64,000 nucleotides of DNA, taken from contig JAOAIH010000003.1 of the NCBI GenBank assembly GCA_026414805.1, positions 26,314 to 90,313 on the forward strand. The letters are read 5' to 3'. Numbering within the stretch: position 1 is the first letter of the stretch; each line of letters opens with the position of its first letter. A program made the position numbers and the translations under genes. This document shows, piece by piece, positions 11,198-47,898 of the stretch. The notes under the pieces are model-generated. The model saw nothing but the letters and a program-made list of their open reading frames with translations, was not told where the DNA came from and made no database searches. The DNA is from Spirochaetota bacterium (GTDB lineage Bacteria; Spirochaetota; UBA4802; UB4802).

Positions 11198-11248
11198 GGA
11201 TGTAATAACTCCTTGCTTGAATTTCGATTCAATATAAAAAAAGAATGA

Positions 11249-11767
11249 TCAATCATGACATACTGCACACGCATTGCTGATTTTTAATGCAGTGTGACAG
11301 TCCATACATACTCCCATGGCCATTTTACCCTTGATTTTTTCGGTAGTTGTTGAATTGCCCTTATCACCGTGACAAGAAACACAATATGCCTTCTTTTCAT
11401 TTTTCATCACTGCTATGTGACTAAAATACACCAGGTCGGGCTGCTGGGCAAAAGATTCCCAGGGTTTGTCATTATCTCCAAAGCCTGAAAAAAATACTTG
11501 TGTATTGACTTTGCTTGGATCATGACATTGCTTACACACAGCAACTGTGGGAATGCCATTGAATCTTCCATTGCTATCATAACTGTGGCATGTCTCACAG
11601 TCAGAAGCTCCATATTTAGTTGTATGGGTACGATGGTTGAATGGAAGAAGTTTTTTTGCCTGTACATTCATTGCATAGTCACAGGCCTGTTGAAAAACAA
11701 TAAAAGAGATGTATGCAAATATAACAAAAGGTAAGAAAAAAAGTAAAAAAGAACGTGTCCCTTTCAC
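11249..11767 (-). CDS. Membrane-anchored pentaheme cytochrome c, QrcA-like
   Basis: N-terminal TM and five CxxCH motifs (CETCH, CKQCH, CVSCH, CMDCH, CAVCH); AGGAG RBS before a GTG start. Confidence 0.85.
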   Translation of the reverse strand: MKGTRSFLLFFLPFVIFAYISFIVFQQACDYAMNVQAKKLLPFNHRTHTTKYGASDCETCHSYDSNGRFNGIPTVAVCKQCHDPSKVNTQVFFSGFGDNDKPWESFAQQPDLVYFSHIAVMKNEKKAYCVSCHGDKGNSTTTEKIKGKMAMGVCMDCHTALKISNACAVCHD

Positions 11768-26220: not shown

Positions 26221-28752
26221 TTGTATATGCATGATATTATATTTGCTCTCAACATATTTATGCTTCCTCCGTTAATTACTCTGATTACTAGCGTGATAGT
26301 TGCAAGCATAGCAGTATTTAAGGGTAAGCGTAAAAAAGAGAATATACTATTTGCATTATTTTGTTTATGGTATGCACTACTCACACCAAATTTTTTGGGT
26401 CATTTTGTTATTAAAGATGTCAATTTTATTTTAAAAATGGAACGGACTATCCATACATTGTACGTTTTTATCCCTTTTATTGGGGTATTATTTTATCATA
26501 CTTCCTTAAATATTAAACGACCGTATCTTGAAATTATAACGTTTGCAATAAGTACTGTATTTGCATTTTTAGTTCATACTCCTTATTATATTACTGATCT
26601 TTTAACCTACCCATGGGGGCATATTGCAAAAGGAGGTATCGTTTTTCAGATCTTTGGGGTATATGCATTTTCAGTACTTATATACGGTATAGTTATAAGC
26701 GTTATTAAATTACGGCAGGAAAGAAATGAGTTAGTTCGTTTAAAGATTAAATATATTATTTTAGCATTAAATTTAATAGGCATTTTTACTGTTTTCAATG
26801 TACCAGCCATGCTTGGGTATAATTTTTATCCACTTAGCAATTTGATGTTTATTCCTCTTATATTTTTAGGATATGGTGTCCTCAGATATAGATTGATGGA
26901 TATTCGGAGTGTATTACATATTACTTTTATTTGGTTTTGTATTTCATCTGTTATTCTTATACCAAATATAATAATTTATAATATAATATACCCTTTCTTC
27001 AAAACATTTGATAAATCGGTGCTGTTTTTTTTATTAATAATATGGTTTGCAGTTAACTATTTTTATTTTATTAAAGTTCAACCCCTTATAGACCAGATTT
27101 TTAATCGAAGAAAATATAATCTAAAAAAGGTTGAGTCGCAATTTATTAACGATATTGCATTATTAAAAGATCTGCATCTTTTATTGAATGAACTATCGTA
27201 TATATTAAAACGTACATTGCTAATTAGAAACGTTGAAATTTTTATTAAAGCTGAAGATAAGGAAAATGAATTGTACAACCTCAATGGCGATACCATTATA
27301 CTGGATAAACAAATCCAGGATTATTTTACTAAAAATCCTGGTGTGATTGAAAAAAAATTAATTGAGAATAAACAACAACATGAACAAGTTGCAAAAATGT
27401 TGTTGCCGCTTTTTGAACAATTATCTGCAGAATATATTATACCACTGGAACATAATGAATTTATAGGTATTATTGCTTTGTCTGAACGCTCAAATTTAAA
27501 GGCATTATCCAATAATGAAATTGAATTTTTACAAAATATTAAATCAGCTTCTTCCATAGCAATTGCTAACTCTCTTATGTATCATAGCTTGAACAACTTA
27601 AAAAATAACTTAGAAGCATTGGTAATGCAAAGAACCGAGCAACTCCAGAAAAAAAATGAGCAGATGGAATTTGAACTAAAATTGGCAAAGACAGTGCAAA
27701 AAACACTTTTGCCATCTGTACTTCCTGCTAATAATCAATTATATGCAGCGGTATATTTCAGGCCATATATGGAAGTAAGTGGTGATTTTTTCTTGCTGGA
27801 ACAAATAGATGAATCTCATTACATGATTGGAGTTGTTGATGTTTCTGGTCATGGAATTCCATCTGCACTACTTACTTCAATGATTAAAACTGAGATTGAA
27901 AATCTTTCAAGATTATACAGATCAACTTCTGTTATTTGCTCACAATTGAATAAAAAGCTCACCCCAATATTGCAGGAAAGTGGATTTTATTTTACACTTT
28001 TTCTGGGTATCATTGATTTTGTCAATATGGAGTTATTGTATACCAATTGTGGCCATACTGATATTTATGTAATAACTTCAAATGACACAGTATATCCTTT
28101 ATCAACTGATTCCGTGTTTATTGGGGCTGATGAGCATATTCATTATCCAGAATGCTTATTTGAACTTAATACTAAAGACCGCATTGTTCTGTATACTGAC
28201 GGGATTACGGAGGCAAAAGCTAAAAGTGGCCACCTGTATGGAAATGAGCGTTTTACAAACATTCTTGTCGCATCGCATGATTTTGCACCTCAGGATCAAA
28301 TTGATATAGTTATTAAAGATCTTGAAAATTTCATTCAATCCGAGGAAGGTACAATTCGCGATGATGTAACGTTTTGTATTATTGAAATAGGTGAACCGAT
28401 TACTGTTGAAAAATATCTTAAAAAGGCTATAACACTGTATAAAAAGAAAAATTATAATGAAGCCCTGTCCATTTTGAATTCAATAACAACAGTACCGCTA
28501 TCTGCTTCCTATAATTATTTGAAAGCAAAACTGTTAATGAAAAATAAGCATTATGAGGAAGCAAAAAAGGCAATACTTTTGGCTCTGAAAGATAAACCCG
28601 ATCATAAAGAATTTAATTATCTTTATGGACAGATATGCTTTGCATTGAAAGATTATCAGGCTGCACTGGATACCTTTGCTGATTTATCAATGATGCAGCC
28701 CTATAAGAAGAGCAAAGAGTTTATAGAAATAATTCAAAAGAAAGGACAATAA
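26221..28752 (+). CDS. Membrane sensor with 7TM, GAF-like, SpoIIE/PP2C phosphatase and TPR domains
   Basis: Hydrophobic N-terminal third; VSGDFF, DVSGHG, LYTDGITEA, DDVT; C-terminal TPR-like helices. Confidence 0.85.
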   Translation: MYMHDIIFALNIFMLPPLITLITSVIVASIAVFKGKRKKENILFALFCLWYALLTPNFLGHFVIKDVNFILKMERTIHTLYVFIPFIGVLFYHTSLNIKRPYLEIITFAISTVFAFLVHTPYYITDLLTYPWGHIAKGGIVFQIFGVYAFSVLIYGIVISVIKLRQERNELVRLKIKYIILALNLIGIFTVFNVPAMLGYNFYPLSNLMFIPLIFLGYGVLRYRLMDIRSVLHITFIWFCISSVILIPNIIIYNIIYPFFKTFDKSVLFFLLIIWFAVNYFYFIKVQPLIDQIFNRRKYNLKKVESQFINDIALLKDLHLLLNELSYILKRTLLIRNVEIFIKAEDKENELYNLNGDTIILDKQIQDYFTKNPGVIEKKLIENKQQHEQVAKMLLPLFEQLSAEYIIPLEHNEFIGIIALSERSNLKALSNNEIEFLQNIKSASSIAIANSLMYHSLNNLKNNLEALVMQRTEQLQKKNEQMEFELKLAKTVQKTLLPSVLPANNQLYAAVYFRPYMEVSGDFFLLEQIDESHYMIGVVDVSGHGIPSALLTSMIKTEIENLSRLYRSTSVICSQLNKKLTPILQESGFYFTLFLGIIDFVNMELLYTNCGHTDIYVITSNDTVYPLSTDSVFIGADEHIHYPECLFELNTKDRIVLYTDGITEAKAKSGHLYGNERFTNILVASHDFAPQDQIDIVIKDLENFIQSEEGTIRDDVTFCIIEIGEPITVEKYLKKAITLYKKKNYNEALSILNSITTVPLSASYNYLKAKLLMKNKHYEEAKKAILLALKDKPDHKEFNYLYGQICFALKDYQAALDTFADLSMMQPYKKSKEFIEIIQKKGQ

Positions 28753-28803: not shown

Positions 28804-30051
28804 TTACACAATCAAATTTTCCCCTACTAATTTTGTAAACGATTCAATTGTTACATTCATTCCATAACCTGTACATATTGTAGATAGTTGAAGATGACAA
28901 TTTTCACAGGCAGTAATAACCATTTCTGCTCCTGATTTTTCAATTTGCTCTTTCTTTGGTTTGCCACTTTTGATTCTGAATTCCTCATTATCAAGGGCAA
29001 CCAGTCCACCACCTCCTCCACAGCACCAATTATATTCGCGTGTTGGGTTCATCTCGCGGTAATCTTTTGCTAGCATCTTCACTATTTCACGAGGTTGATC
29101 GTATATTCCACCATTGCGTCCTAACTGACATGGATCATGCCATGTCACTGGTTTGCTGATTACATCTTCTTTTACTTTTATTTTGCCCTCTTTTATATAA
29201 CGGTAAATTACTTCCACAATGCTTGAAACTTTAAATGGCAATGGTCCCATTAAAAACTTAGGTATTCTGTATGCGGTGCCACATTCAACAATAACTATCT
29301 CCTTAACTCCTAATTCCTTTGCTTCATTGATAACTCTATTGGCAATAAAATTTGCTTTTTCACTGTCACCTACAAAAAAACCAAAGTTAACTGCTTCAAA
29401 GTAGCTTAATGTCCAGTCCTCTTTGGCAGCATTAAATATTGCAGCAGGATACACAATTGAGTGGGCACCTGAAAGCCCTACATAAAGAATATTTGCACCT
29501 TTCTTTTCCATTGGAATAAGGCCTTCGCTAATTGGTGCTTTAATCAGTTTTTGCACTTCTTTTTCAAGGTCTTTGATAACACTCTTGTAACCCTCCTTGA
29601 ACATATCAACGCTTTTACCTTTTTCTACAGCACCATCTGCAAGCATAACCAACTCTTCAGGTGCATTGCCATAGGCTACCAACAATTCTTTTGCAATTCC
29701 TAAGATATATGGCATGTCAATACCAAATGGGCAGAATACTGTACAGCGCCTGCAACCAGTACATGAAAATGCAGCTTCTTTAAGCTCTTCCATAAGGTTT
29801 TCATCAAATTCTTTTGCATCACCCCACCAGGGCAAAAATTTTCCAGTAGGTCTGAAGTATTTTCTGAATACCTTTCGTACTACTTCAGCCCTCCCTACAG
29901 GGGAATATTCTTTTTTAGGAATGCCCTGATATACGTGGCATGTATCATAACATAGGCCGCAGCGAGTGCAGAGATCTAAATAATACAACATGGGCCTGTT
30001 CAACTTCTTTTCAATAACCTGTGTAAGTTCTTGTACTTTTTCCTTATCCAT
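28804..30051 (-). CDS. HdrD/DsrK/HmcF-family Fe-S protein (two 4Fe-4S plus CCG domain)
   Basis: CTRCGLCYDTC, CTGCRRCTVFCP, ECGTAY, HDPCQLGR, CCGGGGG, TACENC. Confidence 0.85.
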   Translation of the reverse strand: MDKEKVQELTQVIEKKLNRPMLYYLDLCTRCGLCYDTCHVYQGIPKKEYSPVGRAEVVRKVFRKYFRPTGKFLPWWGDAKEFDENLMEELKEAAFSCTGCRRCTVFCPFGIDMPYILGIAKELLVAYGNAPEELVMLADGAVEKGKSVDMFKEGYKSVIKDLEKEVQKLIKAPISEGLIPMEKKGANILYVGLSGAHSIVYPAAIFNAAKEDWTLSYFEAVNFGFFVGDSEKANFIANRVINEAKELGVKEIVIVECGTAYRIPKFLMGPLPFKVSSIVEVIYRYIKEGKIKVKEDVISKPVTWHDPCQLGRNGGIYDQPREIVKMLAKDYREMNPTREYNWCCGGGGGLVALDNEEFRIKSGKPKKEQIEKSGAEMVITACENCHLQLSTICTGYGMNVTIESFTKLVGENLIV

Positions 30052-30053
30052 GG

Positions 30054-30776
30054 CTACTTCCTTTTACGATAATGTGCTAGAAATGTAAATACCGAATGTA
30101 CCATTTTGCTGAATGGAAACATCATGAGGAAAATATTTGCAAAAAGTACATGAAGAACCAAAATAGTAAAGTGCGATAGCTCTGTAATCTTGTACGATAG
30201 CTCCGGTTTCAGCATTATCATGCTTTGCAGCCATTGCCGGTAATCGTTCACATCAACCTTAAGTACTGCACCCCAATCGCTATATCGTTCAGCCAGATGA
30301 AGTATTGATCCAAACAATATACAGAAGAAAAGTACGAGCAGTATCACGAAATCTTCAGGAATAGAGATTTCACGATAAGGAGTTCCAAACCTCCTGAAAA
30401 GAAAATATAATGTTGTAATCATAAGAACTATGCCGACAACACCGCCCCCTAAAAATATTTTATGTGGAATTATTTGAATAAAGGCAAAGTCACCTATAAG
30501 TTCCAGATGCCCTAAAAATAATAACAAAAAGAAAAAATGAAATAGTATTATAACAAACCAAAATGATTTTTGCTTATTATAAGCGTTAGGAACTATGAGT
30601 GCTTCGTATAATAATCCAAATACCTTTGAACCTTTTTTAGGAAAAATAGCTCCTGTACCAGGGGGCGCAGGAGCTTTGAATATAACATACAGTTTATATA
30701 AAAGCCCTAAAATCAAGGTTGCAAAGGCAATATATACCATCGGCACTAAAATAAAATATGATATATAGCCCAGCAT
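30054..30776 (-). CDS. NarI/DsrM/HdrE-family diheme-b membrane subunit
   Basis: About 5 TM segments; conserved His in LFHFF..GHL and LHVLF..FPFSKMVH. Confidence 0.8.
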   Translation of the reverse strand: MLGYISYFILVPMVYIAFATLILGLLYKLYVIFKAPAPPGTGAIFPKKGSKVFGLLYEALIVPNAYNKQKSFWFVIILFHFFFLLLFLGHLELIGDFAFIQIIPHKIFLGGGVVGIVLMITTLYFLFRRFGTPYREISIPEDFVILLVLFFCILFGSILHLAERYSDWGAVLKVDVNDYRQWLQSMIMLKPELSYKITELSHFTILVLHVLFANIFLMMFPFSKMVHSVFTFLAHYRKRK

Positions 30777-30799
30777 TGTTTACCTCTTTTAGATGTTAT

Positions 30800-31039
30800 T
30801 TATTTAAGCTTTTTAATATAGAACTTTGTTACGTTGCCATCCTTAACTGTATCAAGAATTTCATTTCCACTTGTTTTGGCCCATGCAGGAAAGTCAGCCA
30901 GTGCTCCAGGGTCAGTAGTTTCTGCCATAAGAATTTGGCCTACCTGCATTTTTTTAATTTGCTGTGAAACTTTAACAACTGGTAAAGGGCATGCCAACCC
31001 TTTTAAATCCATTGTTACATCTGGTTTAATGTCGCTCAT
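30800..31039 (-). CDS. tusA: TusA-family sulfur carrier
   Basis: DLKGLACPLP (CPxP), TTDPGALADFPAWA. Confidence 0.9.
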   Translation of the reverse strand: MSDIKPDVTMDLKGLACPLPVVKVSQQIKKMQVGQILMAETTDPGALADFPAWAKTSGNEILDTVKDGNVTKFYIKKLK

Positions 31040-31144
31040 TGCTACACTCCTTAATTTAAAAAAATATTAATATTCCATTATCATATATTATTTTAAATTA
31101 TATATTGCACACGTGTGAAATACAAGAAGAAAACCACAAATAAA

Positions 31145-31702
31145 TTATATGAATAACTGAATCTTACTGTCTGAAGCTTCCTGTAAAAATGTTGCAACAC
31201 CAACTGATTTAATATCAGGATAGTCAATCATCTCCTCCATTTTAAGGCCCATCAAATCCATTGACATTTCGCATACATAAATTTTTACACCCAGTTCTGC
31301 AGCAAGTGCTATCATCCCATCAAGGTTCTGAATATTCTTTTTTTTCATTATATGTTTCATCATTGCTGTTCCCAAACCACCCATATTCATTTTTGAAAGT
31401 TTTACCCGTGAAGCACCTTTTGGGAGCATAAAGCTGAACATTTTGCCAAAGAAGTTTTTCCCTTTACCTTTTTTCTTCTTATCTCGTAATGCAGGTGTTG
31501 CCCAGAACGTGAAAAACATAACAGCTTCCATGCCCATTGCAACAGACCCTGTTGCAATAATAAATGCGGCTAAAAGTTTGTCTAAATCACCACTGAAAAC
31601 AACCATTGCAATCTTATCTTTTCGACCATCTTGAATCTCTTTGATCTGGTTCTGAATGGATTCTAGCATTTTAATAACAGGTTTACTTTTTACAATAACC
31701 AT
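31145..31702 (-). CDS. DsrE2-like (DsrE/DrsH family) sulfurtransferase
   Basis: VFSGDLDK, FFTFW, YVCEMSMDLMG, VGVATFL. Confidence 0.85.
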   Translation of the reverse strand: MVIVKSKPVIKMLESIQNQIKEIQDGRKDKIAMVVFSGDLDKLLAAFIIATGSVAMGMEAVMFFTFWATPALRDKKKKGKGKNFFGKMFSFMLPKGASRVKLSKMNMGGLGTAMMKHIMKKKNIQNLDGMIALAAELGVKIYVCEMSMDLMGLKMEEMIDYPDIKSVGVATFLQEASDSKIQLFI

Positions 31703-32040
31703 GGTGGCACCCTCATGTATAAAATTATATATCTATTAAAGAATATAATAAATTAATACAACACTAAAACTATTATATACCACTTTCAAAAAATAATTAC
31801 AATAAAATAGAATATTTGTTAAAATAATAAACTATTTGAATTGTTAAGTCAAACTATTTATATATTTTTTTTATTAATAATCCCCCATAGAAATTTTTTT
31901 ATATTCAATATGTATTGTGAGCATGACTGGTGGAGGACCGATAAAGTATAACTTCTTTAACAAAATATATAAACAAAAAAATAGTATATGCAATAATAAA
32001 AAAATGTTAAAAAATATATAAAAAATTTAAAAAAAATAAA

Positions 32041-32070
32041 TTGACAGGCTATAATAGAAATAAATATAAT
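32041..32070 (+). promoter_or_regulatory. Sigma-70-type promoter for the psrABC operon
   Basis: TTGACA-N18-TATAAT, 60 nt upstream of the start codon. Confidence 0.65.
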
Positions 32071-32129
32071 TCTAAAATAGTAAAATTATAAATGTAGATG
32101 TAATACTATCTTCTGCAGGAGAATGTGTA

Positions 32130-34334
32130 ATGTTAGGAAAAATTAGTAGAAGAGAATTTATTAAGATAGCAGGGGCTGGGGTTGGCACTCTGGCGGTTGG
32201 CGGAGGCCTTTATAAATTAGTACAAGATGTAATTACGGATAAAAATGCCAATGGACCAGTAGTAAAAACACCTACATATTGTGAAATGTGTACCTACCAG
32301 TGCGCAGGATGGGTTTATAAAAAAGGTGACATGCCATGGAAAATAGTAGGCAATGAGCTTGATGAGCATTGTTATGGCAGAATGTGCACAAAAGGGTTAT
32401 CAGGTCTTGGTGCTTATTTAGATCCCAACAGGCTAAGAACACCTCTAATTAGGAAGAAAGAAAGAGGAAAACAGGTTTTCAAAGAAGCAACATGGGATGA
32501 AGCTTTTACCTATATTGCTGATAAAATGGAATACTTAAAGCAAAAGTACGGTCCTGAGAGCGTTGCATTGTTCAGTCATGGTTCTGGTGGTCATTGGTTT
32601 AAAATGCTTTTAAAAGCTTATGGTACAAATAGTTTTGCTGCTCCATCCTATGCCAACTGTCGTGGTCCTCGCGAAGAAGGATATGTGCTTACGTATGGTG
32701 AACCAATTGATACCCCTGAGCGCACAGATATGAAAAACACGAAATGCTTGGTTCTTATTGGTTCACACATTGGTGAAAATACTCATAGCCAGCAGGTCAT
32801 TGAATTTTCTCAGGCAGTGGCCAATGGAGCAAGTATCATTGTAGTTGATCCACGGTTTTCAGTTGCAGCTAGTAAGGCAAAATACTGGTTACCAATTAAA
32901 CCAGGTACTGATATTGCACTATTATTGGCGTGGATACATGTATTGATCTATGATGAATTATTTGATAAGCAATATGTATACAATAATACTTCTGGATTTG
33001 AGCAATTAAAGCAATCGGTAAAAAATACCACACCTGAATGGGCGTACCCTATTACATCAATTCAGCCTGAATTGATACGTGAAACAGCAAAAGAAATGGC
33101 AAAATACTCCCCTGCAACGATTGTTCATCCGGGAAGGCATAATGTATGGTATGGTGATGATACGCAAAGAGTAAGAGCAGGAGCAATATTGAATGCTCTA
33201 CTTGGTAGTTGGGGCAGGAAAGGCGGATTTTTCTATCCAGAAAAAGTAGATTTGCCTGAATATCCAACTCCTCCGTTCCCTCATCCTAAGAAATCATTTA
33301 AAGATGCTGTGAATAATAAATATGAACTGGCTAATTTGATTGTTTCATCAGGTATTTGTGATGCAACCATTCATAATGTGATGAATGGGAGCTCATTTTA
33401 TGAAGGTTGGTTCATATATGGTTCAAATCTATTGAAAGCCCTACCACAACAGGAAAAAACCATTAAAGCATTGCAGGATCTTGAATTGGTTGTAGTTGTG
33501 GATATTTTACCAACAGAAATAACTGGTTGGGCAGATGTTGTACTTCCTGATACTACGTATTTAGAGCGATATGATGACATAAGAACCTCACAGGGCAGAA
33601 CACCTCAAATAGCTTTGCGTATGCCTGCATTTAATCCAAGGTATAATTCAAAGCCAGCATGGTGGATTGCCAAAAACCTTGCCGAAAAGATGGGTCTGGG
33701 GGATTATTTCCCGTGGAAAACAATTGAAGAGTATCTTGATTATAAATTAAAAGCTGTTGGAACCTCACTTGATGAAATGAAACAGGTTGGCGTTAAAAAT
33801 TTCGATCGACAAACACCACTGTATATAACAGGTGCACAATTACCACGATTAGATACCCCCAGTGGTAAAATTGAATTGTATTCATCAACATTGGCAAGTT
33901 ATGGATTTGACCCAATTCCCGTTTATACAAAACATGAAGAGCCACCTAAAGGATATTACAGGTTACTGTATGGACGTTCTCCTTTCCACTCATTTGCACG
34001 GACTATAAATAATCCTGTTCTAACGCAATTGCAGGATGAAAATACAGTATGGGTACATCCTACTGTTGCTTTGGATTGGAATTTGAAGAATGATCAGTAT
34101 GTAAGATTGGAAAATCAGGATGGTGTTGTAAGTAATAAGATTAGGGTTAAGGTAACAGAAAGGATACGACCTGATTGTGTGTACATGGTTCATGGATTTG
34201 GGAGTAAGCAGAAGCAGTTGAAGCGTGCGTATAAAAAAGGTGCTGATGACCAGCAACTCATAACAAAAGTAAGTGTTGATCCTATTATGGGTGGTCAGGC
34301 AATGCATGGTAATTTTGTTACCTTTAAAGTTTAG
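32130..34334 (+). CDS. Polysulfide/thiosulfate reductase catalytic subunit (PsrA/PhsA-like)
   Basis: Tat motif SRREFIK, CEMCTYQC...C, probable Mo-ligand Cys in ANCRGPR, DLPxTxYLERYD-type MGD motif. Confidence 0.85.
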   Translation: MLGKISRREFIKIAGAGVGTLAVGGGLYKLVQDVITDKNANGPVVKTPTYCEMCTYQCAGWVYKKGDMPWKIVGNELDEHCYGRMCTKGLSGLGAYLDPNRLRTPLIRKKERGKQVFKEATWDEAFTYIADKMEYLKQKYGPESVALFSHGSGGHWFKMLLKAYGTNSFAAPSYANCRGPREEGYVLTYGEPIDTPERTDMKNTKCLVLIGSHIGENTHSQQVIEFSQAVANGASIIVVDPRFSVAASKAKYWLPIKPGTDIALLLAWIHVLIYDELFDKQYVYNNTSGFEQLKQSVKNTTPEWAYPITSIQPELIRETAKEMAKYSPATIVHPGRHNVWYGDDTQRVRAGAILNALLGSWGRKGGFFYPEKVDLPEYPTPPFPHPKKSFKDAVNNKYELANLIVSSGICDATIHNVMNGSSFYEGWFIYGSNLLKALPQQEKTIKALQDLELVVVVDILPTEITGWADVVLPDTTYLERYDDIRTSQGRTPQIALRMPAFNPRYNSKPAWWIAKNLAEKMGLGDYFPWKTIEEYLDYKLKAVGTSLDEMKQVGVKNFDRQTPLYITGAQLPRLDTPSGKIELYSSTLASYGFDPIPVYTKHEEPPKGYYRLLYGRSPFHSFARTINNPVLTQLQDENTVWVHPTVALDWNLKNDQYVRLENQDGVVSNKIRVKVTERIRPDCVYMVHGFGSKQKQLKRAYKKGADDQQLITKVSVDPIMGGQAMHGNFVTFKV

Positions 34335-34377
34335 TGTAATTACGAAAGCACATATCAAATGATGTAAAGAGGTCAAC

Positions 34378-34929
34378 ATGGCAAATAAGACTAAAAAGTA
34401 TGTAATGGTTATAGATACGCGTTTATGTGTTGGTTGTGGAGCATGTGTAGCAGCATGTAAAATGGAAAATCAGGTTCCTGAAGGCTTGCATAGGGATTGG
34501 ATTGTGGAACAGGTAACTGGAACTTATCCTAATCTTTCTATGGAAATTCGTTCAGAACGTTGTAATCACTGTTCCAATGCTCCATGTATTACTTCATGTC
34601 CAACAGGTGCAAGTCATCGTAAAGAAGGAACAAATATTGTTGTAGTAACAGCTAATAAATGCACTGGTTGCAAAGCATGTATGGCTTCATGCCCATACAA
34701 TGCTCGCTTTGTAATGCCAGATGGGTATGTAAGTAAATGTACTTTCTGTGAACATAGATTAGAAGAGGGTTTAGAACCCGCTTGTGCTTCAGCGTGTCCA
34801 ACACATGCCATTACGTTTGGCAATTTGAATGACACAATGAACAAGGTTTCAAAATTATTAAAAACCAGAAAGTATAAAACCATTATTCCCGAGGCCGGGA
34901 CTGATCCAAATATATTCTATTTATTATAA
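34378..34929 (+). CDS. PsrB/PhsB/NrfC-like 4Fe-4S subunit
   Basis: CVGCGACVAAC, CNHC..PCITSCP, CTGCKACMASCPY, KCTFC..PACASACP. Confidence 0.9.
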   Translation: MANKTKKYVMVIDTRLCVGCGACVAACKMENQVPEGLHRDWIVEQVTGTYPNLSMEIRSERCNHCSNAPCITSCPTGASHRKEGTNIVVVTANKCTGCKACMASCPYNARFVMPDGYVSKCTFCEHRLEEGLEPACASACPTHAITFGNLNDTMNKVSKLLKTRKYKTIIPEAGTDPNIFYLL

Positions 34930-34954
34930 CAAATAATGAAATTAAAAGAATAGC

Positions 34955-35947
34955 ATGAGGTTGCTTATGAATGAAATAGTACTAACAACAAAAAAAGCGA
35001 TTGAGGCAGGCCATTCAATGAGTATTTGGAAATGGGAAGTGCCAATGTATCTTTTCCTTGGTGGCCTCACAGCAGGAATTCTCCTTATTGCTGCTTTTAT
35101 GATTTTGAAAGATAAACCAAAGAAATATCCATTTTCAACTAATAAATTAATTTTGCTGGCACCAATTATTTTAAGTGTTGGTATGTTATTTCTTTTCTTA
35201 GATCTTGACCATAAGTTGTATGTATGGCGATTTTATACTGCATTCCGAATCACATCGGTTATGTCATGGGGTGCATGGATATTGATGCTTGTATATCCTT
35301 TAAGTATTGGGTTAATATTGGCAACTGTCAAGAAAGGTTATGCTGAGTATTACGATAGATTTAATAAATGGCTGAAGAATTCCAAATACAATAAACTATC
35401 GCCAATTATTGATAAATTAATTGTCCTTGCTGAAAAGTACAAAAAGCCTCTGGCTATAGCAACAATACCAGTAGGTATTTTACTTGGTATATATACAGGA
35501 ATTTTATTAAGTGCGTTTTCAGCACGGCCATTCTGGAATTCAGAACTTCTTGGATTTTTATTTTTAGTTTCGGGATTATCTACTGGAGCTGCACTGGTTA
35601 TTTTACTAGCAAAAGATCATGAGGAAAGGAAATTCATCACAAAACTTGATATTGGGTTTATTGCAGTAGAGGCAATATTACTTGTACTGTATATTTTTGG
35701 TATGCTGTCTTCGTCTTTACAGCATATTGATGCAATAAAGTTAATTTTGGGTGGCGAATTGACGCCTATATTTTGGTCTTTTGTGTTTGTTATAGGAATG
35801 CTGATTCCTTTAACACTTGAGCTTCTTGAACTGAAAGGTAAGCCTATACCTTCATCCATTGCTGCATCATTGGTGCTTGCTGGTGGGTTGGCTTTACGAT
35901 TTATTTTTGTTGCAGCTGGCCAGATTACAAACTGGCTACCATATTAA
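34955..35947 (+). CDS. PsrC/NrfD membrane anchor
   Basis: WEVPMYLFLGGL, LDL, SVMSWGAW, YTGILL..RPFWN, SGLSTG. Confidence 0.9.
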   Translation: MRLLMNEIVLTTKKAIEAGHSMSIWKWEVPMYLFLGGLTAGILLIAAFMILKDKPKKYPFSTNKLILLAPIILSVGMLFLFLDLDHKLYVWRFYTAFRITSVMSWGAWILMLVYPLSIGLILATVKKGYAEYYDRFNKWLKNSKYNKLSPIIDKLIVLAEKYKKPLAIATIPVGILLGIYTGILLSAFSARPFWNSELLGFLFLVSGLSTGAALVILLAKDHEERKFITKLDIGFIAVEAILLVLYIFGMLSSSLQHIDAIKLILGGELTPIFWSFVFVIGMLIPLTLELLELKGKPIPSSIAASLVLAGGLALRFIFVAAGQITNWLPY

Positions 35948-35978
35948 ATTATTTATGATTTTAAGGGGGAATTATTGT

Positions 35979-36491
35979 ATGGAAAAGAAACCTTATGCAT
36001 CACCGTACATCGCTGGAGTAGGGTTGGGTTTAGTGTTATTAGCAGCCTTTTTCTTTACAGGCCATGGCCTAGGAGCTTCAGGTGCAATTACTCGGACTAT
36101 AGTTGCTGTTGAAAAAGTTATTTCCCAGGAACATGTTGATGCTAATCCATATCATGCTGAGTATGGTGGTGGCAATACAAATCCGCTCAATAATTGGCTG
36201 GTATTTCAGTTATTGGGTGTAATAGTTGGTGGTATGCTTTCTGGAATTCTTGCAGGAAGATTTAGAAAAGAAATTAACCATGGCCCGCAAATTACGCCTA
36301 AACAGAGATGGGTATATGCAGTAATTGGTGGCGCTCTTTTTGGTTTTGGTGCAAAATTTGCACGAGGATGTACCAGTGGCTTTATTTTAACTGGTGGGGC
36401 TGGTATGGCGCTTGGCGCATGGGTAGGCATGATGGTGATGTTTGCAGTTGCATATATTACTGCATATTTTGTTAGAAAACTTTGGATATAA
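35979..36491 (+). CDS. YeeE/YedE-family sulfur transporter half
   Basis: PYIAGVGLG, GLGASG, FARGCTSG; start moved to the ATG at 35979 after AAGGGGG. Confidence 0.8.
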   Translation: MEKKPYASPYIAGVGLGLVLLAAFFFTGHGLGASGAITRTIVAVEKVISQEHVDANPYHAEYGGGNTNPLNNWLVFQLLGVIVGGMLSGILAGRFRKEINHGPQITPKQRWVYAVIGGALFGFGAKFARGCTSGFILTGGAGMALGAWVGMMVMFAVAYITAYFVRKLWI

Positions 36492-36502
36492 GAGGTGGTT
36501 AT

Positions 36503-37108
36503 ATGTTTGCACCATTATCAGTATATTTTAACTGGAGCAATGGTATAGATTTACTAGTATCTTTTATCATCGGTATTGGGTTTGGTTTTGCATTGGAACA
36601 GGGTGGATTTGGTAATTCAAGGAAGCTGGCAATGCAGTTTTATTTTAGGGATTTGACAGTATTAAAAGTCATGTTTTCTGCTATGGTTACAGCAATGGCA
36701 GGAATAGTGTTTTTTACTGCATTTGGTTGGCTTGATACCAATAGTATGTTCGTTCCTCAAACATATATCTGGGCCCAGATATTAGGCTGTGCCATAATGG
36801 GTGTGGGTTTTGCTATTGGTGGCTATTGCCCGGGAACTAGTTTTGTTGGTCTTTCCACTCTTAAGATAGATGCGCTTTTCTTTATTATTGGTCTTTTTAT
36901 AGGTGTGTTTATTTTTGGTGAACTATTCCCCATTTTAGAAGAATTGTACCATGGCAAATATAGTGGGAATATGGGAAGAATAACTCTGTATGAATTTTTA
37001 GGTGTACGGCCTGGTGTTATTGCCGCAATAATTTTAATCATGGCTATTGGCGCCTTTTGGGGGGCCGAAAAGCTTGAAGAAAAATTTGGTAACCAGATTA
37101 TACAGTAA
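36503..37108 (+). CDS. YeeE/YedE-family sulfur transporter half
   Basis: GFGFALEQGGF, FRDLTVLKVMF, GGYCPGT; start moved to the ATG at 36503 after GAGGTG. Confidence 0.85.
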   Translation: MFAPLSVYFNWSNGIDLLVSFIIGIGFGFALEQGGFGNSRKLAMQFYFRDLTVLKVMFSAMVTAMAGIVFFTAFGWLDTNSMFVPQTYIWAQILGCAIMGVGFAIGGYCPGTSFVGLSTLKIDALFFIIGLFIGVFIFGELFPILEELYHGKYSGNMGRITLYEFLGVRPGVIAAIILIMAIGAFWGAEKLEEKFGNQIIQ

Positions 37109-37120
37109 GGAGTGTACTTT

Positions 37121-37747
37121 ATGAAACTGGAAAACAAGCAAATAGCTGTCTATACGGCTATTATTTTGGCGATAATTATGCTTTTTTTACCTGGCCAGGA
37201 CCCTACCAAGGTACATATTGATTTACAGGCTATGGCCCAGATGATAGGGAATAAGGAAGACCATGTTACGCCAGGTGAATTATCACAGTGGATAATAGCA
37301 GGCAATAATGACTTTCAACTGATAGATATACGAACTAAAGAAGAATATGAAAAAGGGCATATTGAAGGAGCGATAAACATCCCGCTTCAAAATCTATTAA
37401 ATAGAAATGTAATAATGGATGAGCTCAATCATGATAAAAAGATTGTGCTCTATTCCAATGGAAGCTCACATGCATCTCAGGCATGGGTAGTATTAAAGGG
37501 GTTAGGCTTTGACTGTTATATCCTTGAAGGCGGATATAATGGCTGGAATGCTGTTGTACTTAATCCTACAGCTGGGTCAAATGCAACTGATGATGAAGTG
37601 TTGCTGTATGCTAAACAGAAAGCTGTTGCAGACTATTTTGGCGGAAGCAGTATTCAGCAGCAAAAACCAGCTGCAAGCGCAGCACCTGCTCCTGTAGTAC
37701 CACAAAAACCTCAAGGTGGCAAAAAGAAGAAAATGCAGGGATGTTAA
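37121..37747 (+). CDS. Membrane-anchored rhodanese-like protein with a C-terminal Cys tail
   Basis: N-terminal TM, LIDIR..EY..GHIEGAINIP, LEGGYNGW; active-site loop reads YSNGSS; ends KKKKMQGC. Confidence 0.8.
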   Translation: MKLENKQIAVYTAIILAIIMLFLPGQDPTKVHIDLQAMAQMIGNKEDHVTPGELSQWIIAGNNDFQLIDIRTKEEYEKGHIEGAINIPLQNLLNRNVIMDELNHDKKIVLYSNGSSHASQAWVVLKGLGFDCYILEGGYNGWNAVVLNPTAGSNATDDEVLLYAKQKAVADYFGGSSIQQQKPAASAAPAPVVPQKPQGGKKKKMQGC

Positions 37748-37776
37748 TAAACTAAATACTATAGTGAATGTATTAT

Positions 37777-37803
37777 AAAAGGGCTGCATCAATCAGCCCT
37801 TTT
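37777..37803 (+). terminator. Intrinsic terminator of the psr operon
   Basis: AAAAGGGCTG-CATCAAT-CAGCCCTTTT followed by further T residues. Confidence 0.8.
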
Positions 37804-37885
37804 GTTTTTATAATGTTGTTGCATAATTACAATTATTGTTATATACCATTGTAAAGATCAAAAATTAGATAAGAGTTGTTAGTAT

Positions 37886-38065
37886 ATGGTAAGTGATAAT
37901 TATACAACCACAGGTGAGGAAAGAATTTTTAAAAACCAAAAGGAAGCCCTTTTTGCCCTACAGATGTACATGAACCGCTTTATATGGATATCTACAAATG
38001 AGATAGTTTCTGGTGTAAGCTCATGCTACTATAATGACTTAAAAAGTGATAAGAAGAATCAATAA
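37886..38065 (+). CDS. Possible 59-aa small protein (below the ORF-track cutoff)
   Basis: ATG 37886 to TAA 38065: MVSDNYTTTGEERIFKNQKEALFALQMYMNRFIWISTNEIVSGVSSCYYNDLKSDKKNQ; only a weak AAGAG RBS. Confidence 0.3.
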   Translation: MVSDNYTTTGEERIFKNQKEALFALQMYMNRFIWISTNEIVSGVSSCYYNDLKSDKKNQ

Positions 38066-38105: not shown

Positions 38106-39374
38106 TTAGTTACAAGAAATAGATCCTGGTTGCTGGCAATCTGAACATTCAATCGTAACAAAAGTATCACCTCCTTCAACAATACTGCCAAGCCAGTCTA
38201 CAAACCTAACACCATTTACTGTGAGAGTATACACTTCATTAGTCATGAGTATAGTATGGACATCACCGGGTGCAATATAGTAGCTGTAATTTTTTGGATT
38301 GTGAGTAATATTTGAGTATGTAGTTTCTAATATATCGAGCATGTTTGTATGCCACTGACACCATACACTATCGACAGGATTATACCAGTTTTTATAATCA
38401 TCACCAGGATTTTCTATATTTAACATAACATTATAGAAGAAAACCTGATTTTCATCCCATGCGGCTGTATATTGAGCAAAGCGATAGTTACTGTAAAAAT
38501 TTGCAATTGTTGAATAAAGATCTGCAATTGTTAAATTGTCGATATTGTACCCACTGAATTGATTAAAAGATCCAATATCAGGTAATGATGCTCCCCATAG
38601 AGTATCAATATTCTGTTTGAATTCATCAGTGATTACACCATTGCCTGCATCACCCAACAGGTGCACTTGGGAATCCTGAAATTCTTCTGCAATATAGGGT
38701 AAATTAAAAATTGCCCCATACGAACCTGCACTTATCCCGGTTACAAAAATGACATCAGGGTCAGGATTTTTAAAATGATTTCTTAACCATTCTAATACTA
38801 GTTGAAAGTTAACATGGCCACGGTGGCGTATTGTTGCACTTGGTGAGCCATCTTTAGTATACTCTGTATCCTGTTTTCCCCAGTGTAGATCACCAGTACA
38901 ATAAGGTATATACACAAAATTCCAGTCTTTAAAAGGATTTTCTGCATTGGTAAAATCGAATATGCCACTGTAGCCCATTGACTTTGCCTGTCCATTGCTA
39001 ATTAAATCAAGGATATTAGCATCGTCATAGTACATAAGTTCTTCTGAATAAGTGGGTTTTGCTACGCAGTTGTTGTAGTGCCAGCAAGCACCACCACCTT
39101 GGAAATATATAACAAGTTTATTAACAGTACCGTAACGTACAAAAAATAAAAATTTAGAGTTTGCTGCTGCAGGATGATTTGAGCAGGATGGTGATAAGTT
39201 ATTATATACAAATTGTGAATACACGCCATCGTCAGCTGTTTCCCAATCAATCTGCTGCCAGTAATTTATCAAAGTATCTGAATTACTATCAGAACCTGAC
39301 TCCCCACAATGTATGAGGAAAACAATAGTGCTGAATATAACAAGTACAAGCATATGCTTATATTTCATGAGCAA
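38106..39374 (-). CDS. Pectinacetylesterase/Notum-family lipoprotein
   Basis: Lipobox LIH-C, FQGGGACW, YIPYCTGDLHWG, nucleophile GISAG, C-terminal H in PGDVHT. Confidence 0.8.
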   Translation of the reverse strand: MLMKYKHMLVLVIFSTIVFLIHCGESGSDSNSDTLINYWQQIDWETADDGVYSQFVYNNLSPSCSNHPAAANSKFLFFVRYGTVNKLVIYFQGGGACWHYNNCVAKPTYSEELMYYDDANILDLISNGQAKSMGYSGIFDFTNAENPFKDWNFVYIPYCTGDLHWGKQDTEYTKDGSPSATIRHRGHVNFQLVLEWLRNHFKNPDPDVIFVTGISAGSYGAIFNLPYIAEEFQDSQVHLLGDAGNGVITDEFKQNIDTLWGASLPDIGSFNQFSGYNIDNLTIADLYSTIANFYSNYRFAQYTAAWDENQVFFYNVMLNIENPGDDYKNWYNPVDSVWCQWHTNMLDILETTYSNITHNPKNYSYYIAPGDVHTILMTNEVYTLTVNGVRFVDWLGSIVEGGDTFVTIECSDCQQPGSISCN

Positions 39375-39577: not shown

Positions 39578-39805
39578 TTATTCAACTTCCGAAGCACATG
39601 ATTCCTTGCAGGTGCTTATCTTTAAAAGGTCGTATGCCCAGCAATAACCACTGTATGCAGAGTATAATACAGCCAATCCCAGAGCTAAAAGAATAATAGT
39701 TCCTATAGCACCCGGTTTTAATATAATTATATTAAGTAAAAATGAAACCCCAATTAAAACTCTGATATACCTGTCAGCTGGACCAACATTCTTTTTCATA
39801 TTCAT
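39578..39805 (-). CDS. DUF2892/YgaP-like small membrane protein
   Basis: MKKNVGPADRYIR, two TM segments, GYCWAY..KISTC. Confidence 0.8.
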   Translation of the reverse strand: MNMKKNVGPADRYIRVLIGVSFLLNIIILKPGAIGTIILLALGLAVLYSAYSGYCWAYDLLKISTCKESCASEVE

Positions 39806-45844: not shown

Positions 45845-46687
45845 ATGTGGGAATATACAGAAAAGGTAAAGGAATTATATAAAAATCCAAAGAATGTTGG
45901 CGAAATACCTGATGCTGATGTTGTTGTTGAGGTTGGCAGCATTGTGTGTGGTGATGCTCTTACGCTTTACCTTAAGCTTGATGGTGACAAAATTGTTGAT
46001 GCAAAGTTCAAAACATTTGGATGTGGAAGTGCAATTGCCTCCTCATCGGCATTGACCGAGATGATTAAAGGGAAGACTGTTGATGAAGCTGCAAAGATTA
46101 CCAATAAAGATATAGTTGAATTTTTGGGTGGACTCCCCGACCAGAAGATGCACTGTTCGGTAATGGGGCAGGAGGCACTTGAAAAAGCCATAAAGAAAAT
46201 CAAGGGCCAAAAAATAGAAGATGAACACGAAGATGAAGGTGCCATTGTGTGTCAGTGTTTTGGTGTTTCGGAAAATTTAATACGCCGTGTTATTAATGAA
46301 AATAATCTTACCACTGTTGAAGAAGTGACCAATTATACAAAAGCAGGTGGTGCGTGTGGTTCGTGCATTCCAAAAATAGAAGATATTATAAAAGAAGAGC
46401 TAGACAAAGTAAAAGAAAAACCCCGTGTAGATATTAATATAAAACCAATGTCTAATTTAAAGAGGATGCAGCTTGTAGAAGAAACAATACAGAATGTCAT
46501 TCGCCCGGTACTTTTGCGTGATGGTGGTGATATTGAACTTATTGATATTGATGGAAAGAAAGTATACGTAGCATTACGTGGTCACTGTGCACACTGTGTT
46601 ATTTCTGATGTTACCATGAAAAACCTTGTACTGGAAAAATTGCGTGAGTATGTAGAAAACGATATTGAAGTAATAGAGGTGAAATAA
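45845..46687 (+). CDS. nifU: Fe-S cluster scaffold NifU (three-domain)
   Basis: GSIVCGD, FGCGSAIAS, HCSVM, CQCFG...GACGSC, GHCAHC. Confidence 0.92.
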   Translation: MWEYTEKVKELYKNPKNVGEIPDADVVVEVGSIVCGDALTLYLKLDGDKIVDAKFKTFGCGSAIASSSALTEMIKGKTVDEAAKITNKDIVEFLGGLPDQKMHCSVMGQEALEKAIKKIKGQKIEDEHEDEGAIVCQCFGVSENLIRRVINENNLTTVEEVTNYTKAGGACGSCIPKIEDIIKEELDKVKEKPRVDINIKPMSNLKRMQLVEETIQNVIRPVLLRDGGDIELIDIDGKKVYVALRGHCAHCVISDVTMKNLVLEKLREYVENDIEVIEVK

Positions 46688-47898
46688 TGCAAAATAGCAT
46701 AATATATCTTGATAACAATGCAACAACAATGGTGGCACCAGAGGTTATGGAAGCCATGATGCCATTTTTTATGGAACGATATGGCAATCCATCAAGTATG
46801 CATGATTTTGGTGGTGATGTTGCACATGATGTAGAGCGTGCTCGCCATAGTGTAGCACGGATGCTTGGCGCTGATTATGATTATGAGATAGTTTTTACCA
46901 GTGGTGCCACTGAAAGCGATAACATGGCAATACTGGGGACATTGCAGTATTACCGTGATAAAAAACATATAGTAACAACAAAAGTGGAACATCCTGCGGT
47001 GCTTAATCTATGCCGCCAGCTTGAACGTGAAGGATATTCTGTTACCTATGTTCCTGTTGACAGGGAAGGTAATCTGGATCTTGATTTTTTATTTGATGCA
47101 GTGACAAATGATACGGCAATAGTTTCGGTGATGTATGCTAATAATGAAACAGGTGTTATATTCCCTGTTGAAGAGATTGGTGCATTTTGCAAAAAGCGTG
47201 GTGTGCCATTTCATGTTGATGCAGTGCAGGCAATTGGGAAAATACCGGTTGATGTAAATAAAATTCAATGCGACTTGCTTGCAATTTCCGGTCATAAGTT
47301 TCATGCACCAAAGGGGATTGGTGTATTGTATGTGCGAAGAGGCACACGAATGAGACCGTTATTATACGGTGGACATCAAGAAAAAGCCAGAAGGCCTGGC
47401 ACGCATAATGTACCAGGGATAATTGGAATAGGGAAAGCCTCTGAGCTTGTCATAGAGCATCTTGCTAAACCTGAAGAAGTAGCTCGTGTAAAAAAACTAC
47501 GTGACCGTCTTGAAAATGGATTGCTGTCTCAATGTTCAAATGCTCATCTTAATGGAAACAAGGTTAAAAGGGTAGATAATACTACTAATATAGGATTTGA
47601 ATATATTGAAGGTGAGGCAATTCTACTGTATCTTAATGAAAAGGGGATAGCAGCATCATCTGGTTCGGCATGTTCTTCGGGTTCACTGGAGCCTTCACAT
47701 GTCCTTAGGGCAATGGGAGTGCCGTTTACATCAGCACATGGTTCAATTCGCTTTAGTTTAAGCCGTTACACCACTGAAGAAGAAATTGATTATACGTTGC
47801 AGGTGATGCCAGAGGTAGTAAATAGATTGCTTGAAATTTCGCCATACTGGGATGCAAAAAATAAAAAAGGCAAACCCATTACTGAGCTTGCCCGCTAA
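46687..47898 (+). CDS. nifS: Cysteine desulfurase NifS
   Basis: YLDNNATT, ANNETG, HVDAVQ, SGHKFH, SSGSACSS. Confidence 0.93.
   Translation: MQNSIIYLDNNATTMVAPEVMEAMMPFFMERYGNPSSMHDFGGDVAHDVERARHSVARMLGADYDYEIVFTSGATESDNMAILGTLQYYRDKKHIVTTKVEHPAVLNLCRQLEREGYSVTYVPVDREGNLDLDFLFDAVTNDTAIVSVMYANNETGVIFPVEEIGAFCKKRGVPFHVDAVQAIGKIPVDVNKIQCDLLAISGHKFHAPKGIGVLYVRRGTRMRPLLYGGHQEKARRPGTHNVPGIIGIGKASELVIEHLAKPEEVARVKKLRDRLENGLLSQCSNAHLNGNKVKRVDNTTNIGFEYIEGEAILLYLNEKGIAASSGSACSSGSLEPSHVLRAMGVPFTSAHGSIRFSLSRYTTEEEIDYTLQVMPEVVNRLLEISPYWDAKNKKGKPITELAR

Follow-up and report, generated by a model that had tools for sequence, protein, structure and literature searches.

Divergent sulfur operons in a spirochaete contig

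Ten genes with predicted roles in sulfur respiration and trafficking occupy positions 28804 to 37803 of a 64,000-nucleotide stretch of contig JAOAIH010000003.1 (assembly GCA_026414805.1, Spirochaetota bacterium), which we refer to as the window. The genes form two divergent arms separated by an A+T-rich control region, psrA-psrB-psrC-yeeE-yeeE-rhodanese on the plus strand and dsrE2-tusA-dsrM-like-dsrK-like on the minus strand. Every open reading frame (ORF) of at least 120 aa in the window was compared with Pfam, and NCBIfam equivalog cut-offs were applied to the proteins of the locus. All ten products were identified with Pfam and NCBIfam, bearing out the family-level identities proposed in an earlier note on this DNA, and the ten genes, the 427-bp divergent region, the consensus promoter and the plus-arm terminator all lie where that note had placed them. 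The closest loci come from metagenome-assembled genomes (MAGs) labelled Leptospira, Leptospiraceae, Leptospirales or Spirochaetota, in agreement with the spirochaete origin that it had suggested. The features of the locus are listed below, with comparison loci labelled L001–L125 here and throughout.

28804–30051, minus strand: DsrK/HdrD-like cytoplasmic iron-sulfur subunit, 415 aa, with two 4Fe-4S motifs and one CCG domain (PF02754 and Fer4)
30054–30776, minus strand: NarI/DsrM-like membrane cytochrome b, 240 aa, with ∼5 transmembrane (TM) segments (PF02665, hydropathy)
30800–31039, minus strand: TusA sulfur carrier, 79 aa, with Cys17 in CPLP (PF01206, 72.6 bits)
31145–31702, minus strand: soluble DsrE2B-type protein (PF13686, 164 bits against a cut-off of 25; relatives have 179 aa)
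31703–32129: divergent control region, 427 bp, 19.2% G+C, including the left edge (∼31680) of a 6.3-kb segment missing in psr-less congeners
31824–31852, minus strand: candidate promoter of the dsrE2 operon, TTGACT-17-TATTAT (10/12 match), with the −35 block GTTTGACT kept in psr-bearing congeners
32041–32070, plus strand: promoter of the psr operon, TTGACA-18-TATAAT (12/12 match), conserved in L089, L092 and L093
32130–34334, plus strand: PsrA/PhsA-type Mo-bisPGD catalytic subunit with Tat signal, 734 aa (Thermus PsrA match; NF012032 PhsA, 472 bits)
34378–34929, plus strand: PsrB four-cluster ferredoxin subunit (PF13247 and other Fer4 families)
34955–35947, plus strand: PsrC NrfD-type quinol-binding membrane subunit with ∼8 TM segments (PF03916, 163 bits)
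35979–36491, plus strand: half-size YeeE/YedE, C-terminal half (PmpA-like), with one Cys (GCTSG) (PF04143 profile 177–307 of 310; relatives have 170 aa)
36503–37108, plus strand: half-size YeeE/YedE, N-terminal half (PmpB-like), with a Cys in GYCPGTS (PF04143 profile 4–150 of 310)
37121–37747, plus strand: membrane-anchored rhodanese-fold protein without catalytic Cys (PF00581), with an LYSNGSSHAS loop and a Lys-rich C-terminal arm ...KKKKMQGC
37775–37805, plus strand: intrinsic terminator of the psr operon with a 12-bp stem; the right edge of the variable segment lies at ∼37938

The plus arm holds the complete Psr/Phs architecture in one operon, with a Tat-signal A subunit, a four-cluster B subunit and an NrfD-type C subunit. 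The catalytic subunit aligns with Thermus thermophilus PsrA (PDB 2vpw) over residues 6–732 (678 bits, E = 1e-202), the next best PDB match being acetylene hydratase (176 bits), with ArrA at 127 bits and DMSO reductases at ∼85. PhsA is the best NCBIfam model (472.3 bits, compared with 255 for Fdh-alpha, 235 for DmsA/YnfE, 135 for ArrA and 35 for TtrA); with an NF012032 cut-off of 694 bits, the protein is a member of this family but not a PhsA equivalog. An arsenate or selenate reductase, the grouping on which the earlier note would have given up its proposal, is ruled out by these scores (PhsA 472 and Thermus PsrA 678 bits versus 127–135 for ArrA), which place the subunit on the Psr/Phs side. 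PsrA carries a twin-arginine motif (SRREFIK) and an N-terminal C-x2-C-x3-C motif, and the Cys of its SYANCRGPRE segment, which we take to be the Mo ligand, aligns with that of SVSLCTAPRE in 2vpw.

Thermus PsrABC (PDB 2vpw–2vpz) and Salmonella PhsABC share with the window operon the combination of a Tat-exported Mo-bisPGD subunit, a four-cluster ferredoxin and an NrfD-type membrane subunit, and for Thermus PsrA the alignment runs from end to end, including the Cys of the ...C..PRE segment. The difference lies in the fixed association of the window operon with two half-size YeeE genes and a Cys-less rhodanese-fold protein. Judged by its sequence, the plus arm is a new addition to the Psr/Phs family, and its accessory genes are ones that we did not find described for Psr/Phs in the literature searched. 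Polysulfide, thiosulfate and S0 are not separable by sequence as Psr/Phs substrates (PMC13047784).

The two YeeE/YedE chains (170 and 201 aa) are not of the full-length TsuA/YeeE type, which is a single chain of ∼330–350 aa with nine TM segments and three conserved Cys. One matches the profile's C-terminal half and the other its N-terminal half, each with its motif Cys, which fits the heterodimer proposed for PmpA/PmpB, the split half-size form of YeeE (PMC11582611). The window halves share with PmpA/PmpB both the division of the profile and a Cys in a GC..G or GYCPG motif, but they are longer (170 and 201 versus ∼130 aa) and embedded in a psr operon. They differ from the TsuA–TsuB (YeeE–YeeD) thiosulfate uptake system in that their partner is a rhodanese-fold protein and not the TusA-like YeeD. 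The most likely starts of the two genes, from relatives of 170 and 201 aa, are the ATG codons at 35979 and 36503, and that of the rhodanese-like gene is 37121 (MKLENKQ).

The rhodanese label that the earlier note gave to the last gene of this arm holds for the fold but not for catalysis. The position of the active-site Cys, which belongs to a CxxGxR-type loop in catalytic rhodaneses, is occupied by Ser in the window protein and by Ser or Gly in all aligned members of the family (n = 9, n = 28; to ∼32% identity). Because the catalytic Cys is lacking, the protein cannot work as a classical rhodanese. Every full-length member has one N-terminal TM segment, and the basic tail, with GC, GCS or CG at its end, is common to all 28 members. 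As a rhodanese-fold accessory of a polysulfide reductase, the protein is comparable to Sud, the periplasmic polysulfide-sulfur transferase of Wolinella succinogenes; Sud, however, needs its active-site Cys, whereas the window family has Ser or Gly in 28 of 28 members, a membrane anchor and a poly-lysine arm. In placing a Cys after Gly at the extreme C-terminus of a flexible arm, it resembles SoxY and DsrC/TusE, whose C-terminal arms end in GGCGG in SoxY and in ...GCV in DsrC.

For the minus arm, an alignment of DsrK-like proteins was scanned against one genome per prokaryotic species, giving 378 relatives; the best 80 of the 378 were kept and represent 79 distinct loci. The residues C28/31/34/38, C97/100/103/107, C257, C308, C343/344 and C382/385 of the DsrK-like protein are kept in 78–80 of the 80 homologues and comprise both four-Cys motifs, five Cys of the CCG domain and an extra Cys257. 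The cytochrome b keeps H80, H90, H209 and H227 in 72–73 of 73 homologues, enough for two bis-His haems. Cys17 of TusA and Cys144 of DsrE2, the single Cys of that protein, are each invariant (70/70). The pair therefore has the makeup of DsrMK, in which a DsrK with two 4Fe-4S motifs and a CCG domain is joined to a NarI-like dihaem cytochrome b, and the ligands of both are conserved. The NCBIfam scores fall short of the equivalog cut-offs (265 versus 400 bits for DsrK NF045796, 26 versus 300 for DsrM and 64.8 versus 210 for DsrE2), and for the DsrM-like protein the narI and TmcC models score equal to or above DsrM. DsrE2 matches the crystallised soluble proteins 3pnx (E = 7e-30) and 2qs7 over its full length, which identifies it as a soluble carrier of the DsrE2B type and rules out the membrane-bound DsrE2A type; its true start is probably slightly downstream of 31702.

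As the earlier note had stated, the window contains no dsrAB, dsrC, sox or shdr genes among the ORFs compared with Pfam, and a DsrC-like query gave no significant tblastn match in the window (best match 22 aa, E = 0.028). In the 79 loci, the genes that recur within 5 kb of the minus-arm cassette include neither dsrC nor dsrAB. DsrMK, the minimal form of the DsrMKJOP complex that reduces the DsrC trisulfide, and methanogen HdrED share with the cassette a NarI-type cytochrome b with four His and a cytoplasmic subunit with two 4Fe-4S clusters and a CCG domain, encoded by tightly coupled genes. Unlike DsrMK and DsrMKJOP, the cassette has no dsrC, dsrAB or dsrJOP in the window or among its recurrent neighbours, and its partners are TusA and a DsrE2B-type protein.

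Three further systems bring related genes together. An operon of Desulfurella amilsii contains two dsrE-like genes, dsrK, dsrM, dsrC, dsrL and dsrAB, and its authors proposed that Cys residues of DsrE replace a missing DsrC cysteine (PMC6378623). There, in a sulfur/thiosulfate reducer, DsrE-family genes directly adjoin dsrMK as in the window, but the operon keeps dsrC, dsrL and dsrAB, whereas the window cassette has TusA and none of these. The rhd-tusA-dsrE2 genes of sulfur oxidisers (Allochromatium vinosum) and the sHdr-linked TusA/DsrE sets likewise pair a CPxP TusA with a DsrE2-family protein having a single conserved Cys; the window pair differs in being tied to a membrane quinone-linked reductase, in occurring in MAG lineages that include strict anaerobes, and in lacking an active rhodanese, rDsr or sHdr. 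Finally, the YTD cluster of sulfur disproportionators (yedE-tusA-dsrE-chp1-chp2; PMC12998232) holds YedE-family, TusA and DsrE-family genes in one neighbourhood. The earlier note had been reminded of these groupings, but the likeness does not extend to their defining features: in the window the YeeE proteins are half-size and their genes, which are part of the psr operon, point away from tusA and dsrE2, chp1 and chp2 are missing, and a DsrMK-like pair stands in their place. We found no account of the dsrE2-tusA-dsrMK-like cassette, of a split YeeE and a Cys-less rhodanese combined with Psr, or of the Cys-rich MerR with its operator described below in the literature searched in full text, subscription-only papers lying outside that scope.

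The spacing of the genes fits two operons. On the minus strand the gaps are 105 bp (dsrE2–tusA), 23 bp (tusA–dsrM-like) and 2 bp (dsrM-like–dsrK-like), and on the plus strand they are 11–43 bp; the psr promoter and ribosome-binding site are kept in congeners. An operator common to both arms within the 427-bp region was considered and rejected, the repeats there being low-complexity A+T runs, and a weak TAGAA...TTCTA symmetry in the psr promoter was dismissed as unconvincing.

Distribution and polymorphism of the two cassettes

The minus- and plus-arm content of the 79 loci was read by tblastn with the window proteins; 46 of these loci have at least 7 kb of upstream and 45 at least 7 kb of downstream flank. 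All four minus-arm genes are present in 70 of the 79, the remainder being cut contigs, and 64 have the order DsrE2-TusA-DsrM-DsrK. The loci belong to at least five phyla and include MAGs labelled Leptospirales or other Spirochaetota (64–93% identity), Aminicenantes, Thermodesulfobacteriota, Bacillota and Pseudomonadota, as well as the cultured Desulfacinum infernum DSM 9756 (53% identity). The alternative order DsrE2-DsrM-TusA-DsrK is seen in L058–L060, L063 and L069, which are MAGs labelled Thermodesulfobacteriota, Deltaproteobacteria or Syntrophaceae, and 13 loci, the majority of them from MAGs labelled Thermodesulfobacteriota, Deltaproteobacteria or Pseudomonadota, have a gene for a 241-aa MarR-family regulator directly upstream of the cassette. 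Homologues of psrABC, of the YeeE halves or of the rhodanese-like gene were found near the cassette in none of the 79 loci; one locus holds an unrelated Mo enzyme (28% identity).

The six-gene psr cassette stands alone in L004, L006 and L008 (two spirochaete loci and one MAG labelled Pseudomonadota), and neither these nor the psr cassettes of metagenome loci have a dsrE2 arm. The divergent ten-gene layout is present in the independent congener assemblies L089, L092 and L093, which belong to the 90%-identity PsrA cluster. In L094 and L095 the psr cassette occupies the same site and the contigs end before the dsrE2 arm, and in one MAG a contig break in the A+T-rich spacer separates L090 from L011. 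The ten-gene synteny that the earlier note had proposed to look for is thus confined to close congeners of one genus of uncultured hot-spring spirochaetes.

Even within this genus the psr segment is not constant. In the psr-less congeners L010, L012 and L013, whose DsrK is 91–93% identical to that of the window, ∼280 bp replace window positions 31680–37938 with no Ns in the gap, and the flanks are those of the window, with metallophosphoesterase, ygaP-like and esterase genes on one side and a SpoIIE-type phosphatase gene on the other. A tree of the four concatenated minus-arm proteins intermixes psr-bearing and psr-less congeners, L092 (with psr) and L012 (without) being sisters with 99% support. 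The DNA of these two is 96.9% identical through the dsrE2 cassette and 83.7% identical beyond the variable segment. Together, the intermixed tree and this contrast in identity mark the region upstream of dsrE2 as a recombination breakpoint where the psr segment is exchanged or lost.

The two cassettes are therefore independent units of inheritance that are neighbours in one genus of uncultured Leptospirales-like spirochaetes, and the ten genes are not one transferable, self-contained island. That the locus is composite and polymorphic we regard as highly probable. The earlier note's proposal of a self-contained island survives insofar as the ten genes are adjacent and divergent and a functional link between them is plausible; its other part fails, because there is no conserved ten-gene unit, the plus arm accompanies the minus arm in 0 of 79 loci, and psr is present or absent within the genus.

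A regulator, operator and channel common to both cassettes in relatives

In relatives, a small MerR-family gene lies 3′ of the psr cassette in L004 and L008 and 3′ of the dsrE2 cassette in L002/L049, L048, L051 and L061. The protein encoded beside psr (L004:15793–16284) is 72% identical to the one encoded beside dsrE2-dsrK-FadL (L002:12751–13236). Metagenome contigs were scanned with an alignment of this family, and the proteins, including those of L096–L125, are ∼160 aa long with one invariant Cys at the end of the DNA-binding region and eight Cys in the C-terminal half. This Cys-rich MerR, which was not found described in the searched literature, is a candidate sulfane-sulfur sensor.

A predicted operator, the 28-bp palindrome ATAATCTATA-N8-TATAGATTAT, directly follows a TTGAC −35 element. 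Upstream of psrA it is found without mismatches in L004, L008 and L107, with 3 mismatches in L006/L007 and, as an ATATC half-site variant, in L097/L099; it is also found upstream of dsrE2 in L048 and L051 (0 mismatches), L049 and L105 (1), L050 (2) and, in a weaker form, L061. At the same spacing it has no other occurrence in the 1.55 Mb of comparison DNA scanned, except for one short-contig site without assigned context. In the MAG HGW-Spirochaetae-5, the MerR and FadL genes lie at the dsrE2 cassette (L061) and the psr cassette is on another contig (L007), with operator-like sites before both (20.9 and 30.8 bits).

A FadL/TodX-type outer-membrane protein is the third common element. Metagenome loci contain both psrABC-yeeE-yeeE-rhd-FadL-MerR and dsrE2-tusA-dsrM-dsrK-FadL-MerR, the FadL/TodX-type proteins of the two contexts being 54–81% identical, and in 13 of the 79 genome loci, that of Desulfacinum among them, this FadL-type gene is the next one downstream of dsrK. 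The positions are as follows.

L004:9918–9945, L008:9932–9959, L048:8052–8079, L051:4095–4122, L049:8176–8203, L105:5335–5362 and others: operator sites
L002:11335–12519, L080:11355–12647 and L097:∼8557–9900: FadL/TodX-type channel gene, 3′ of either cassette

These sequence comparisons suggest that, in relatives, both cassettes belong to one zero-valent-sulfur regulon with a common outer-membrane channel, which may be the entry route for hydrophobic S8 or organic polysulfanes. Because MerR, operator and FadL are common to the two cassettes elsewhere, it is plausible that the cassettes work together in zero-valent-sulfur respiration, although they need not do so.

Two side observations concern the MerR and the dsrE2 upstream region. 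A third MerR-linked operon (L109:7124–9984 and L121:7183–9916) encodes a Pyr_redox_2 flavoprotein, a DUF1641-like protein, a DsrC-like protein (PF04358) and a DsrE2-family protein, and so pairs a DsrE2 relative with a DsrC-like carrier. In the Leptospirales loci L001, L003 and L024, which lack the MerR operator, a conserved leader block ATAAAATACTTAAAT stands between the promoter and the dsrE2 start; L010 has the variant ATAAAATATTAAAT.

Proposed mechanism and alternatives

We interpret the locus as two separable sulfur modules, a Psr/Phs-type periplasmic reductase and a putative DsrC-independent counterpart of DsrMK, an explanation that we consider the best available and somewhat more probable than its alternatives taken together. 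On the plus side, PsrC would oxidise menaquinol and pass electrons via PsrB to PsrA, the established route in Psr/Phs enzymes, and PsrA would reduce periplasmic polysulfide, thiosulfate or S0-derived sulfur. With its Lys-rich, terminal-Cys arm, the rhodanese-like protein would bind anionic or zero-valent sulfur and present it to PsrA or to the split YeeE channel, from which sulfur could conceivably be handed over to TusA and thus from one arm to the other.

On the minus side, by analogy with NarI, DsrM and HdrE, quinol would be oxidised near the outer face of the membrane and electrons would cross via the two haems to the CCG cluster. That cluster would then reduce a persulfide, or a mixed di- or trisulfide between Cys17 of TusA and Cys144 of DsrE2, to cytoplasmic sulfide. 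With electrons from menaquinol, the arm would act as a DsrMK counterpart that needs no DsrC, and its NarI-like topology would make sulfur reduction electrogenic. We regard the case for this reductive carrier-persulfide mechanism as evenly balanced. A Qrc-like operon of four genes 17 kb away (7131–11767, minus strand), encoding c3-type cytochrome, Mo-family, Fe-S and membrane subunits, matches QrcA–D (NF041781–NF041784) best for all four proteins, all below the equivalog cut-offs; such a menaquinone reductase is a plausible, even likely, route for periplasmic electrons into the quinone pool.

More tentatively, and in what we consider less likely than not, the two can be combined into one scheme. 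The minus-arm cassette would be an electrogenic, DsrC-independent cytoplasmic reductase of carrier-bound zero-valent sulfur that forms a redox loop in the manner of NarGHI, with TusA and DsrE2 acting as a 'split DsrC'. Together with the Psr cassette, in which a swinging-arm Cys-less rhodanese would sit beside a PmpAB-type import channel, it would make up a two-compartment regulon for S0/polysulfide respiration, fed with hydrophobic sulfur through FadL and switched on by a sulfane-sulfur-sensing MerR.

Several observations weigh against our interpretation. Menaquinol, at about −74 mV, is poorly suited to reducing persulfide or S0 couples, and would do so only at favourable concentrations or with the help of a proton-motive force. 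With DsrK and DsrM scores below the equivalog cut-offs, the analogy to DsrMK is one of family resemblance only, and the genome may encode dsrC and dsrAB at other sites. For the rhodanese-like domain, a location in the periplasm is weakly favoured by the charge bias around its helix. The regulatory elements of the relatives are not found here: the best score of the operator position weight matrix is 5.4 bits in the window and −4.1 in the divergent region, compared with 27–39 at real sites, the window has no MerR or FadL homologues, and the intergenic regions of the congeners have no operator. At this locus, adjacency is the only link seen between the arms. The stretch itself was found in a single DNA run (a hot springs metagenome, 2014) and in 0 RNA runs.

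Among the alternatives, the ten genes could constitute one obligatory, self-contained pathway leading from periplasmic reduction through YeeE import and a rhodanese/TusA/DsrE2 relay to quinol-linked reduction in the cytoplasm, as their divergent adjacency in the window and several congeneric assemblies and the regulator, operator and FadL channel common to both arms elsewhere might imply. We think this unlikely, given that the psr arm is near none of the 79 dsrK-type loci, that psr cassettes exist without a dsrE2 arm, that close congeners retain the dsrE2 cassette without psr at the same site, and that the rhodanese-like protein has no catalytic Cys and is probably periplasmic. At the other extreme, adjacency may have no functional meaning, the minus arm serving housekeeping sulfur trafficking or reactive-sulfur homeostasis (removal of excess persulfide, or supply or recycling of carrier persulfides for cofactor and tRNA thiolation) unrelated to Psr respiration. 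The cassette is indeed very widespread and mostly alone, with 378 stretches in species-representative genomes encoding a relative; TusA is a general sulfur hub (PMC11582611), DsrE4-type relatives have been proposed to detoxify reactive sulfur (PMC11094781), and the 13 loci with upstream MarR-type regulators fit such a role. A NifU-NifS (cysteine desulfurase) pair at window positions 45845–47898 on the plus strand, 8 kb downstream of the psr operon, would also offer TusA an ordinary alternative source of persulfide. That this cassette has its MerR, operator and FadL channel in common with a respiratory Psr operon, and that a dihaem cytochrome b anchor points to the quinone pool over simple sulfur transfer, leaves a housekeeping role improbable, if slightly less so than an obligatory ten-gene pathway.

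Two other proposals concern the partner or the direction of the minus arm. It could be an ordinary DsrMK serving DsrC and DsrAB encoded elsewhere, with TusA and DsrE2 only feeding or relieving DsrC as in D. amilsii, where DsrE-like genes adjoin dsrMK (PMC6378623). DsrK is the best NCBIfam model, Dsr genes are present in some Spirochaetes MAGs (PMC8477390), and DsrC-like and DsrE2-like genes are paired beside the same MerR in other contigs. The DsrK and DsrM scores, however, are far under their equivalog cut-offs, and dsrC and dsrAB are found neither in the window nor among the genes that recur within 5 kb of the cassette across the 79 loci. Desulfacinum and other sulfate reducers presumably have a canonical Dsr system, and the cassette would be an extra copy there. 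We give this proposal little credence. Least probable of all, in our judgement, is oxidative operation, in which carrier thiols or persulfides would be oxidised and electrons delivered to the quinone pool as by DsrMKJOP of sulfur oxidisers, the carrier-bound sulfane sulfur being made from sulfide. DsrMK-type complexes are found in nature to operate either way (PMC10504309), the sequence comes from a hot-spring metagenome, and TusA and DsrE2 are best known from sulfur oxidisers, but no rDsr, sHdr or Sox genes are linked to the cassette in any locus examined, its regulator is common to a quinol-consuming reductase, and it also occurs in strict anaerobes such as Desulfacinum.

The locus bears on the passage of elemental sulfur and polysulfide through the outer membrane, whose mechanism a 2026 paper describes as not known (PMC13510729), and on how energy is conserved in their reduction. 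It provides three leads: a widespread and apparently undescribed DsrMK-like cassette that is always accompanied by TusA and DsrE2, which its presence in the cultured sulfate reducer D. infernum DSM 9756 makes testable; a fixed Psr accessory set consisting of a split YeeE channel and a Cys-less rhodanese with a terminal-Cys arm; and a common regulator, operator and FadL channel as a connection between the two cassettes.

The genes that flank the locus are the following; Rfam and tRNA scans of the window gave no matches.

26221–28752, plus strand: protein of 843 aa combining a 7TM sensor region, a SpoIIE-type PP2C phosphatase domain and TPR repeats, convergent with dsrK; its synteny extends to Leptospirales relatives (40% identity with the L001 gene)
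38106–39374, minus strand: pectinacetylesterase-like gene (PF03283), another variable insert that separates dsrE2 from the ygaP-like gene
39578–39805, minus strand: YgaP-like TM (DUF2892) membrane protein, 75 aa, with three Cys (PF11127; 62% identical to the L001 gene)

The pectinacetylesterase-like gene is present in L010, L012, L013 and L090 and absent from L014, L046 and L092. The ygaP-like gene lies ∼0.5 kb upstream of dsrE2 in Leptospirales relatives (12 loci) and is an ancestral neighbour of the cassette, from which it is split off in the window by the esterase gene and the psr segment.

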